Below are positions 35,369 through 38,302 of a DNA stretch of 64,000 bases, one piece after another. Position numbers and translations under genes: made by a program. The notes under the pieces were generated by a model. It searched no databases and had not been told where the DNA came from. It saw nothing but the letters and a program-made list of their open reading frames with translations. This DNA comes from Fibrobacteria bacterium. Its GTDB lineage: Bacteria > Fibrobacterota > Fibrobacteria > UBA5070. The DNA lies in NCBI GenBank assembly GCA_035352895.1, contig DAOPYN010000010.1, forward strand, positions 24,188 through 88,187, written 5' to 3'. Each line of letters opens with the position of its first letter. Position 1 is the first letter of the stretch.

Positions 35369-36718
35369 TCAGACCTCCAGAAGTTCGGGATTTTCCTCGA
35401 GGAACTTGGTCGTGAAGGCCCCGGAACGGAAGATCCGGGAGTCCAGGATGCGCCGCTGCAACCGCGCGGTGGTGGCCGGACCGTTCACCACGAGCTCGTC
35501 CAGGACGCGCACCATGCGATCGATTGCCTGGTCCCGGTCGGAAGCGTGCACGATCAGCTTGCCCACCATCGAGTCGTAGTGCGGAGGAATGGAGTACCCC
35601 GCGTAGATGTGGCTGTCCCAACGCACCCCGAAGCCACCAGGCACGTGGAGCCCCTGGACCACGCCCGGACAGGGACGGAACCCCAGGGAGGGGTCCTCGG
35701 CGTTGATGCGGCACTCGATGGCGTGTCCCTTCACCTTGATGTCCGATTGCTTCCAGGGCAGTTCCTCTCCCCGGGCCACCTGGATCTGGGCGCGGATCAG
35801 GTCGACTCCCGTGACCATCTCGGTGACGGGATGCTCCACCTGGATGCGGGTGTTCATCTCCATGAAGTAGAACGAGCCGTCCTCGTCCAGCAGGAACTCC
35901 ATGGTGCCGGCGTTCTCGTACCCCACTGCCTTGGCGCCCTTGACGGCGGCCCGGCCCATGGCCTGACGGATCTTGTCATCCACCGCGGGGGAAGGGGATT
36001 CCTCCACGAGCTTCTGGTGGCGACGCTGCACCGAGCAGTCGCGTTCGCCGAGATGGACCACGTTGCCGTGGGAATCGGCCATCAGTTGGATCTCGACGTG
36101 GCGGGGACGCTCGAAGTAGCGTTCCATGTACACCCGTCCGTCCCCGAAGCAGGCCAGCGCCTCCGCCGTGGCCACGGGAAACTGGCTTTCCAGTTCCTTG
36201 ACGTCGCGCACCACGCGCATGCCGCGTCCGCCGCCACCGGAAACCGCCTTGATGATCATGGGAAACCCAACCACCTTGGCCCACCGGCGGGCCTCGTCGA
36301 TGGTGGCCACCGGTCCGTCGGAGCCGGGGATGGTGGGGACGCCCGCGGCGCGCATGGCGTCCTTGGCCTGGGACTTGTCGCCCATGCGGGAGATCGCCTC
36401 CGGCGATGGGCCGATGAACTTGAATCCGCACTTGCCCACAAGTTCCGCGAACCGGGGATTCTCGGAGAGGAATCCGTAGCCCGGATGGATCGCGTCGGCC
36501 CCGGTCAGGGTGGCCGCAGACAGGATCTGTCGCATATCCAGGTATGACTTCTTCCCCGGAGGCGGCCCGATGCAGACGTCCTCGTCGGCGAGCCTCACAT
36601 GGAGGGAATCGGCATCCGCCGTGGAATGGACCGCGACGGTGCGGATGCCCAGTTCCTTGCAAGCGCGGATCACGCGCAGGGCGATTTCGCCACGGTTGGC
36701 GATCAGGATCTTTTTCAT
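35369..36718 (-). CDS. accC: acetyl-CoA carboxylase biotin carboxylase subunit
   Basis: 449 aa [25 protein letters not shown]... with the ATP-grasp and BC C-terminal domains. The ATG overlaps the pilT stop (ATGA). Confidence 0.95.
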
Positions 36719-37815
36719 CAGGTCATCCAGCTCCGGTCGGAGGCACCTTCCACGCCGCGCAGCTTGAGCTCGAAGTCGGCTGGATTCGACGCGCTGCGAA
36801 GGGCCACTTCGTACGAGATCACGTCGTCGGTGAAGAGTTTGAAGATGGACTGGTCGAACGACTGGCTTCCGTACTGGGCGGTGCCCTCGCGGATCGCCGG
36901 TTCGATCATGTGCGTCATCTCGGGATTGATGAGGTAGTCGTGGATGGTGGCGTTGTTCACCAGGATCTCGGCGGCGGGAACACGGCCCTGGCGGTCCTTG
37001 CGCGGGAGAAGCCGCAGGGAGATGATCGCCACCAGGGTGTTGGCCAGAAGCAGCCGCACCTGCTGGTGCTGGTGGGGCGGGTAGAACGACACGATGCGCG
37101 AGATGGTCTCGGTGGCGTTCATGGTGTGGAGCGTGCTCATCACCAGGTGGCCGGTGTCGGCCGCCTGCAGCGCGATGTGCATGGTCTCCTGGTCGCGGAT
37201 TTCGCCGATCAGGATGGTGTCGGGATCCTCGCGGAAGCTCGCGCGCAGCGCGTTGGGGAAGTGGTGGGTGTCGTATCCCACTTCGCGCTGGCTGATGATG
37301 GACCGCTTGTCGCGGTACAGGAATTCGATGGGGTCCTCGACGGTGATGATGTTCGAGGAAGTCATCTCGTTGATGTGGTCGATCATGGAGGCGAGCGTGG
37401 TGGACTTGCCCGACCCGGTGGTCCCGGTGACCAGGATGAGGCCCCGCTCCTTGAGGGCCAGATCGCGGACGATTTCCGGCAACCCGAGCCCCTCGAAGGA
37501 GGGAATGGTCTGGGTGATGTGCCGGATGGCCAGAGCCGGAGTGCCTCGCTGGCGGAACGCGTTGACGCGGAATCGCCCCAATCCCCGCACGCCCACCGCG
37601 AAGTCCAGTTCCAGTTCGGAATCGAACCTCGCACGCTGGTTGCGGTTCATGATCACGCCCAGGTAGCTTTCCATGCCTTCCGGACTCACGCGCTCGGTCT
37701 GCAGGCGGAACAGGTCTCCGTTGATGCGCAGGGCCGGCGGGACCCCGACGCGAAGGTGCAGGTCGGACGCGCCGCGGTCCACCATCTCCTTGAAGAGCTG
37801 TTCGATGGTCATCAC
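36718..37815 (-). CDS. pilT: type IV pilus retraction ATPase PilT
   Basis: 365 aa with Walker [10 protein letters not shown], Asp box, Walker B, His box and the PilT signature ...[18 protein letters not shown].... It lies between accB and accC. Confidence 0.9.
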
Positions 37816-37816
37816 G

Positions 37817-38302
37817 TCAGGCTGGCCTGATCAGGAAGAGCACCGTTCCGAACTCGACGGGAGTCTCGTTGGCGACGCAGACCTTGACCACGGTGCCGGA
37901 AACCTCCGCTTCGATCTCGTTCATGAGCTTCATCGCCTCGACGATGCACACGGTCTTGCCCTTCTCCACGCGACCGCCCTCCTCGACGAAGGCGGGAGAA
38001 TCCGGCGAGGCGGAGCGGTAGAAGGTGCCCACCATGGGGCTCGTGATCTCCACCAGACCGGCTTCCGTTGCGGCTGGTGCGGCAGCGACAGGCGTCGGCC
38101 CAGGGACGACCGGTGCGCTCGGAACGGAGACCGGTGCGGCCACCTGGACCGGTGCGGCGGCCATGTGCACCACGGCGGGCCCTGGCTTCTTCAGGAGCAG
38201 GCGCTCCCCTTCGCCGGACCATTGCAGCTCGGAGAGGGAGGATCTGTCCAGGAGTTCGATCAGCCGACCGATGTCGTCGACGTTCATTCTGTTCCTTTCC
38301 AT
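37817..38302 (-). CDS. accB: acetyl-CoA carboxylase biotin carboxyl carrier protein
   Basis: Ala/Pro-rich linker and a biotinyl domain with the [12 protein letters not shown] motif. Alternative start MNVDDIGRL at 38287. Confidence 0.9.

Follow-up and report, generated by a model that had tools for sequence, protein, structure and literature searches.

Within a 64,000-nucleotide stretch of the genome of a Fibrobacteria bacterium (contig DAOPYN010000010.1, positions 24,188 to 88,187; hereafter the window), the gene for a PilT/PilU-family ATPase (pilT) lies between accB and accC, which encode the biotin carboxyl carrier protein (BCCP) and the biotin carboxylase (BC) of acetyl-CoA carboxylase. 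In model organisms accB adjoins accC, and AccB regulates the expression of its own operon; as in E. coli, both genes are here on the same strand with accB first, except that a 1.1-kb ATPase gene separates the two. Comparison with other bacterial genomes indicates that the order accB-pilT-accC is an ancient arrangement, retained by no fewer than seven lineages of phylum rank and neither a local accident nor the quirk of a single lineage, and that the ATPase belongs to a distinct paralogue clade and is not a canonical PilT. The explanation that we favor, and in which we place moderate confidence, is that an accessory pilus ATPase became locked into a growth-linked housekeeping operon, its coupling to the acc genes being one of expression only. 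The three genes are as follows:

37817-38302, minus strand: accB, biotin carboxyl carrier protein of 161 residues (TIGR00531 and Pfam Biotin_lipoyl)
36718-37815, minus strand: pilT, PilT/PilU-family ATPase of 365 residues when read from the GTG at 37815 (TIGR01420)
35369-36718, minus strand: accC, biotin carboxylase of 449 residues (TIGR00514)

These identities, as first assigned in the original prediction, are all upheld by curated models. AccB scores 161.1 bits against the BCCP model TIGR00531 (cut-off, 115.2) and contains the biotinyl-lysine motif, its biotinylation site reading EAMKL. The pilT product scores 451.7 bits against the PilT/PilU model TIGR01420 (cut-off, 319.1), with protein residues 4-347 aligned to positions 2-343 of the 343 in the model; and AccC scores 713 bits against TIGR00514 (cut-off, 626.5) and possesses the three BC domains (i.e., Biotin_carb_N, CPSase_L_D2 and Biotin_carb_C). 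The G+C content at third codon positions (GC3) is nearly equal among the three genes (0.82 for accB, 0.89 for pilT and 0.85 for accC).

Relatives of the ATPase were scanned at one genome per species, yielding 227, of which the best 80 loci were kept and compared with the window proteins by tblastn. In this comparison of accB/accC neighborhoods, an approach that the original prediction had advocated, the order accB-pilT-accC recurs on one strand in 74 to 76 of the 80 loci, which come from seven phylum-level lineages: Fibrobacterota, TA06, WOR-3, Stahlbacteria, Zixibacteria, Ignavibacteria and Gemmatimonadota (taxon labels being those of the deposited metagenome-assembled genomes). Gemmatimonadota contribute 26 loci and Fibrobacterota nine (plus L081, from a related complete genome), and four closed WOR-3 chromosomes are included. 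The closest relative among the best 80 loci, at 99% identity, is from a Fibrobacterota metagenome-assembled genome. Intergenic gaps mostly range from -8 to about 100 nt (the accB-pilT gaps of roughly 470 nt at L002 and L003 are a stop-finding artefact, in that the tblastn matches abut). The stop of pilT and the start of accC overlap by 1 nt in 23 loci, distributed among Fibrobacterota, WOR-3 and Gemmatimonadota, and the gap between these genes is 0-2 nt in seven others. Recurrence to this extent goes far beyond chance.

The pairwise distances of PilT are closely correlated with those of AccC (r = 0.94; p-distances, 74 loci), and the same groupings are recovered from either protein: WOR-3 with Stahlbacteria and TA06, Zixibacteria with Ignavibacteria, Fibrobacterota, and Gemmatimonadota. 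This match of both distances and groupings shows that the ATPase has been co-inherited with accC, and this across between-phylum divergences of about 0.45 for PilT and 0.41 for AccC. Within Fibrobacterota, the ATPase is the most conserved protein of the array (96-99% identity, as against 87-94% for AccC and 81-92% for AccA), which indicates that strong purifying selection acts on the ATPase itself.

Could the arrangement have arisen through a misjoin during assembly, or could pilT have entered accBC recently and in one lineage only, by insertion or horizontal transfer? Apart from the fact that the arrangement is rare in model organisms, we find nothing to recommend this explanation, whose probability we consider negligible: Some 75 independent assemblies, closed chromosomes among them and seven phylum-level lineages represented, have the identical order, the ATPase tree is congruent with the phyla, PilT covaries with AccC, and GC3 is uniform. 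A misjoin had already been judged unlikely when the locus was first described, and correctly so; the lineage-specific rearrangement that was then entertained is contradicted by the retention of the order in seven phylum-level lineages and by its co-inheritance with accC. Although the arrangement is visible in public genomes, full-text searches returned no relevant paper describing a pilT within accBC, and it is apparently undescribed.

The catalytic motifs of the ATPase are intact (Walker A, the Asp box VEDPIEF, Walker B with its catalytic Glu, and the His box), and all four are conserved in each of 82 aligned clade members. With the canonical PilTs of P. aeruginosa (3JVU/3JVV), Geobacter (6OJX/5ZFQ) and Aquifex (2GSZ/2EWV), the protein shares the TIGR01420 family, the two-domain fold, the catalytic boxes and a similar length. 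It departs from them in its motifs: Canonical PilT has a Walker A of GPTGSGKST and the motif AIRNLIRE, whereas members of this clade have G-T/V/I-TGSGKST and an extra tail, and carry, where AIRNLIRE would be, a region with a one-residue insertion (ATIHDYLIN in the window protein). AIRNLIRE, which is required for PilT function in P. aeruginosa, is absent from the window ATPase and was found in 0 of 120 close homologues, but it is present in the P. aeruginosa, Geobacter and Aquifex proteins as well as in a second paralogue from WOR-3. The C-terminal tail of the clade (G-I/V-x-x-A/T-S/A-D/E-R-x-W/F) occurs in all 120 close homologues, in 109 of 119 profile hits, and in none of 120 members of the family typified by 5FL3, a Thermus thermophilus pilus retraction ATPase. 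An AlphaFold2 model, made from database proteins, has the two-domain PilT fold with secondary-structure elements in the same order as in PilT (mean predicted local distance difference test, 87.6; predicted template-modeling score, 0.80); residues 357-365, which comprise the tail, are of low confidence or disordered, as expected for a docking peptide.

Phylogenetic relationships were examined with distance-based neighbor-joining (NJ) trees, using PilU as the outgroup. The accBC-linked proteins form one phylum-congruent clade, apart from canonical PilT and the second paralogues of WOR-3 in 96 of 100 bootstraps. Strict monophyly of the members whose gene context was verified was recovered in 0 of 100 bootstraps, solely because two representatives of 50%-identity clusters fell inside the clade: P0373, which sits in a TPR-pilT context (TPR, tetratricopeptide repeat) on a contig that ends at pilT, and P0369, which is outside the context-verified set. 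The telling criterion is the exclusion of canonical PilT in 96 of 100. The best match in the PDB is 5FL3 (358 bits, 46-48% identity), followed by Aquifex PilT (332), Geobacter PilT (307 and 295), PilU (9N32; 298) and P. aeruginosa PilT (267), with matches spanning the full length of the protein. It does not group with PilU, in that 298 bits is well below the 358 for 5FL3 and the motifs differ from those of PilU (GATGTGKST; His box ending LHA); PilU proper lies outside the clade, with GATGTGKST as its Walker A, although it too lacks AIRNLIRE.

The distinction from canonical PilT is most evident where both proteins are encoded together. In 13 WOR-3/Stahlbacteria loci (e.g., L033, 3-1211), a canonical PilT with the motif xVRNLIRE is encoded about 5 kb upstream of accB, where its gene immediately precedes recG, DUF4837 and the TPR gene, such that both paralogues are contained within 7 kb. 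The top scores of this canonical paralogue are to the PilTs of Geobacter (347 bits) and P. aeruginosa (342 bits), the latter compared with 267 bits for the window ATPase. Hence, of the proposal that the middle gene specifies a pilus retraction ATPase, the assignment to the PilT/PilU family stands, but that to a canonical retraction motor does not, given the separate clade, the missing AIRNLIRE and the tail peculiar to it. One further homologue, P0241 (658 residues, from a JGI metagenome), combines a PilT-like part containing AIRNLIRE with a PilU-like part, and may be either a fusion or a gene-calling artefact.

The 5FL3 family offers the closest comparison. Like the window clade, 5FL3 lacks AIRNLIRE, has the same one-residue insertion, and is the product of an orphan gene coupled to a metabolic gene, in this case panC (pantoate-beta-alanine ligase); it differs in having no tail, in following panC instead of lying between accB and accC, and in having no conserved TPR neighbor. 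In Marinithermus and Deinococcus (L083, 5171-7080; L084, 5120-7077), the pilT of this family overlaps the end of panC by 4 nt, and the panC-pilT pair is conserved in Deinococcota. The possibility that a Deinococcota homologue of this family occupies an accBC context was rejected, since it follows panC in both genera. 5FL3 and its Deinococcota relatives fall outside the clade (5FL3 is next to it in one NJ tree, but not in a broader one).

The absence of AIRNLIRE raises the question of whether the ATPase has left pilus biology altogether and, with the TPR protein, powers some other process (e.g., another type of filament for secretion or uptake, or a scaffold at the cell pole), its position in accBC being incidental. 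This would accord with the fact that at nearly all loci the gene is an orphan with no pil genes nearby, that TPR-pilT adjacency is kept even without the acc genes, and that a canonical PilT co-exists in WOR-3. We nevertheless view such a departure as rather unlikely: The protein scores very highly against the PilT/PilU model, every one of the nearest solved structures is a pilus retraction ATPase, and PilZ, pilM, pilN and pilO genes occur about 4 kb downstream of accC in one relative, the complete Fibrobacterota genome represented by L081. (In this genome, HDOD and PilZ proteins flank pilMNO; within the 64-kb window, tblastn detected no second pilT/pilU and no pilM, pilN or pilO.) Moreover, PilU remains a pilus motor despite having no AIRNLIRE, and we take 5FL3 to be the PilT2 of T. 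thermophilus, which would make PilT2 the nearest studied relative of the window protein. Deletion of pilT2 in T. thermophilus alters pilus-driven motility, leaving it weak but not abolished, and results in more and longer pili and stronger attachment, the properties of a secondary motor (PMC12393216). By homology, and from the pilM/pilN/pilO genes near the cluster of its relative, the window protein would be a hexameric, pilus-retracting ATPase.

On either side of the three genes, the array continues with the following:

34626-35366, minus strand: FecR-domain protein of 246 residues with an N-terminal signal or transmembrane segment (Pfam FecR, E = 7e-17)
38323-40167, minus strand: cytoplasmic TPR protein of 614 residues (Pfam TPR matches)
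40210-40503, minus strand: Trm112-like small protein of 97 residues (weak match to NCBIfam NF038101, E = 4e-7)
40500-41483, minus strand: accA, carboxyltransferase alpha subunit, with its start at 41483 (TIGR00513, 422.6 bits against a cut-off of 319.3, and Pfam ACCA)

Headed by a GT2 glycosyltransferase gene, these form the same-strand array GT2-accA-trm112-TPR-accB-pilT-accC-fecR, with gaps of -4 to 42 nt throughout. The stop of accA is overlapped by the start of the trm112-like gene (ATGA), 20 nt separate the end of the TPR gene from accB, and the FecR-domain gene begins 2 nt past the accC stop. The junctions around pilT are similarly tight: The accB stop (TGA, 37819-37817) is separated by 1 nt from the GTG at 37815, as first reported, or by 4 nt from the ATG at 37812, the equivalent of which is the position from which homologues are called (yielding 364 residues); and the stop of pilT overlaps the start of accC by 1 nt, the coding strand reading 5'-TGATG-3' (36720-36716) and not, as had been described, ATGA. 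A scan of 34000-44000 revealed no promoter- or terminator-like sites from the 5' end of the TPR gene through accB-pilT-accC, a result that carries little weight in that it relied on a sigma-70 consensus that is possibly not valid for the host phylum; a single terminator-like match is situated at 40125-40112, just inside the TPR gene. Since signals would not fit within the junctions and no promoter- or terminator-like site was seen, the natural reading is that accB, pilT and accC share one transcript and that their translation is coupled.

The neighborhood in which the three genes reside was reconstructed by clustering all open reading frames (ORFs) of the loci and annotating the representatives with Pfam. 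In Gemmatimonadota, Ignavibacteria, Zixibacteria and TA06, the context is TPR-aroQ-pepP(M24)-(efp)-accB-pilT-accC, with the same upstream genes as in the widespread aroQ-pepP-efp-accB-accC neighborhood. In WOR-3 it is canonical pilT-recG-DUF4837-TPR-accB-pilT-accC, and two more contigs have pepP-accB-pilT-accC-gcvH-gcvP and TPR-pepP-efp-accB-pilT, respectively. The ancestral wider cluster is TPR-aroQ-pepP-efp-accB-pilT-accC, which would represent the familiar aroQ-pepP-efp-accBC housekeeping neighborhood supplemented by a leading TPR gene and by the ATPase gene between accB and accC. A loose parallel may exist in Bacillus subtilis, whose spoIIIA operon (the first gene of which encodes a secretion-type ATPase) probably lies between efp and accB. 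In two Zixibacteria-like loci (L085, 1606-4783; L086, 11878-15055), the glycine cleavage genes gcvH and gcvP come directly after accC, and the spacers around pilT are long (354 and 753 nt); the NCBI label of L085 is Terriglobales, perhaps through an error in binning. The FecR-domain gene is kept downstream in Fibrobacterota, including at L082, which is without accC. The trm112-like gene, wedged between accA and the TPR gene, also keeps its position in Fibrobacterota, and a Fibrobacter locus lacking accA, accB and accC still carries it at the same place.

The TPR protein begins with a TPR domain, ends with a single TPR unit, and has an acidic, repeat-containing region in between. Its counterparts in WOR-3, TA06, Gemmatimonadota and Ignavibacteria are orthologous over the N-terminal ~130 residues (E = 1e-10 to 1e-32) and share the single C-terminal TPR unit, and the orthologues all lack a signal peptide. 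Within the low-complexity middle, an acidic motif of the type DDIEGRLDDLF is repeated four to five times (variants include EDVDSRLDELF and DDIENRMDALF); these repeats are shared by other Fibrobacterota orthologues, were not found outside the phylum, and could constitute a repeated docking site. A cytoplasmic TPR protein that regulates a pilus ATPase is known in Myxococcus, where SgmX acts on PilB. The window protein is comparable to SgmX in that it is large, has no signal peptide, and is encoded and conserved with a pilus-type ATPase; its layout is that given above, and an interaction with the ATPase would be purely conjectural.

Several other features of the window deserve mention. Genes for lipid and envelope functions are plentiful around the locus (accA, lpxA, lpxD and a CDP-alcohol phosphatidyltransferase). 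Between lpxA (47252-48061) and lpxD (61534-62457) are two giant ORFs with coding-like GC3, both on the minus strand: one of 1927 residues (48570-54353), which has no Pfam match at E <= 1e-5, and one of 2015 residues (55322-61369). A second biotin-dependent set (23551-27933, minus strand) comprises a methylmalonyl-CoA mutase (23551-25689), a 130-residue biotinyl carrier (25694-26086) and a 550-residue carboxyltransferase (26281-27933); since no dedicated biotin carboxylase accompanies it, the accC product may be shared between two carboxylases; alternatively, these genes may specify a decarboxylase or transcarboxylase. Cyclic-di-GMP genes are present at 10056-13716 (minus strand), where a GAF-GGDEF diguanylate cyclase (11350-13716) is beside an HD-domain protein (10056-11273).

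The linkage of the ATPase gene to accB and accC has been broken in several lineages. Three Fibrobacterota loci without accB and accC nest inside the clade and retain the tail (contexts GT2-GT2-trm112-TPR-pilT-nadE, TPR-pilT-rapA and TPR-pepP-pilT-fecR); such loci, in Fibrobacter, Fibrimonadaceae and Chitinispirillia-like genomes, have the TPR gene or pepP beside pilT. A WOR-3 subgroup has TPR-pepP-efp-accB-pilT with accC elsewhere, and one unplaced contig has TPR-pilT. In each of these cases pilT remains beside TPR, pepP or efp, its upstream neighbors, and not with accC, and the TPR gene adjoins pilT directly where accB is absent. These loci show that the accBC linkage is dispensable. Distant relatives with similar tails (45-53% identity) occur in yet another context, directly after recA on two contigs and directly before recX on two others, one of the latter labeled Myxococcota (L088, 5001-6624; L089, 3543-6197; L090, 3904-6209; L092, 112-1927), and may represent a second case in which a pilus-type ATPase gene lies between two functionally linked housekeeping genes. 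Together, the broken loci and the association of paralogues with panC and with recA/recX argue against a link that is specific to acetyl-CoA carboxylase. As such, the early suggestion that motor abundance is tied to fatty-acid flux can be supported as a matter of co-expression, but not as an acc-specific connection.

These same loci bear on the alternative in which stoichiometric co-production was itself selected, either because the ATPase acts on the BC-BCCP half-reaction complex, perhaps together with the TPR protein, by binding, positioning or regulating it, or because it matches membrane-lipid supply to pilin traffic at the inner membrane. Three considerations weigh against our favored explanation, and the first two lend themselves to this alternative: The gene has been kept between two genes of physically interacting products across roughly 45% protein divergence, an unusual situation and one classically taken to signify functional association; in the Deinococcota relatives, pilT is translationally coupled to panC, whose role in coenzyme A synthesis also touches acyl metabolism; and the evidence for the TPR partnership that we favor comes from gene neighborhood. 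The alternative further draws on the tail and the loss of AIRNLIRE, which suggest a changed set of partners, and on the abundance of lipid and envelope genes in the window (i.e., accA, lpxA, lpxD and the CDP-alcohol phosphatidyltransferase). We still regard it as distinctly unlikely, in that the ATPase and its tail persist in several lineages that have lost the link, with pilT remaining beside TPR, pepP or efp; that distant tail-bearing relatives are beside recA or recX; that aroQ, pepP and efp, housekeeping genes unrelated to one another, already share the host cluster; and that literature searches yielded no support. Quite improbable, in our estimation, is the proposal that the tail-bearing ATPase and its TPR partner form a physical or regulatory part of the biotin carboxylase-BCCP system in bacteria of the Fibrobacteres-Chlorobi-Bacteroidetes (FCB) group, whether by assembling, localizing or gating acetyl-CoA carboxylase at the membrane or by coupling lipid synthesis to the extraction and reinsertion of pilins. 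Were this true, selection on co-production would explain why the gene has been retained between accB and accC in seven phylum-level lineages.

The explanation that we favor, an accessory ATPase locked into a housekeeping operon, accounts for the locus as follows. The middle gene most likely encodes an active, hexameric PilT-family ATPase that serves as an accessory motor for type IV pilus retraction or disassembly and not as the primary PilT. Fixation of its gene between accB and accC, within an old TPR-aroQ-pepP-efp-accB-accC housekeeping string, would date to an ancestor shared by several FCB-group phyla, and the gene would have been vertically inherited with the cluster ever since. In the window, pilT would be transcribed with accB and accC, probably within the array that extends from the GT2 gene to fecR, and translation of accC would be coupled to the termination of pilT through the TGATG overlap, as accC and pilT would also be coupled in many other lineages. 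The ATPase would then be produced constitutively, in step with the growth-regulated expression of accBC. Given the need for the ATPase and the requirement that accB and accC stay co-expressed, neither gene could be lost, and the gene would be locked in: The link to acc would be one of expression and genomic lock-in and not of shared biochemistry. The most economical functional link, judging from gene neighborhood, is with the cytoplasmic TPR protein encoded upstream, which is probably the partner of the ATPase and possibly binds the clade-specific C-terminal tail.

The components of this locus are of known kinds; the novelty resides in the conservation of the architecture, in the tail-bearing paralogue clade, and in the TPR neighbor. 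accB and accC constitute a textbook case of a conserved two-gene unit, with interacting products whose ratio is regulated, and the presence between them of a third, unrelated gene predates the divergence of Fibrobacterota, Gemmatimonadota, WOR-3 and related lineages, providing a clean natural test of the relative contributions of function and lock-in to operon architecture. The analysis also delineates a recognizable and testable family of PilT paralogues, distinguished by the absence of AIRNLIRE, a conserved tail and a conserved TPR neighbor, whose members are labeled 'twitching motility protein PilT' by automatic annotation although they are probably not the primary motor. The panC and recA/recX cases suggest that riding in essential operons is a general habit of orphan pilus ATPases, and this habit bears on how pilus regulation is inferred in uncultured phyla. 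And if the link to acc were to prove biochemical, it would amount to a new connection between lipid synthesis and the dynamics of surface filaments.

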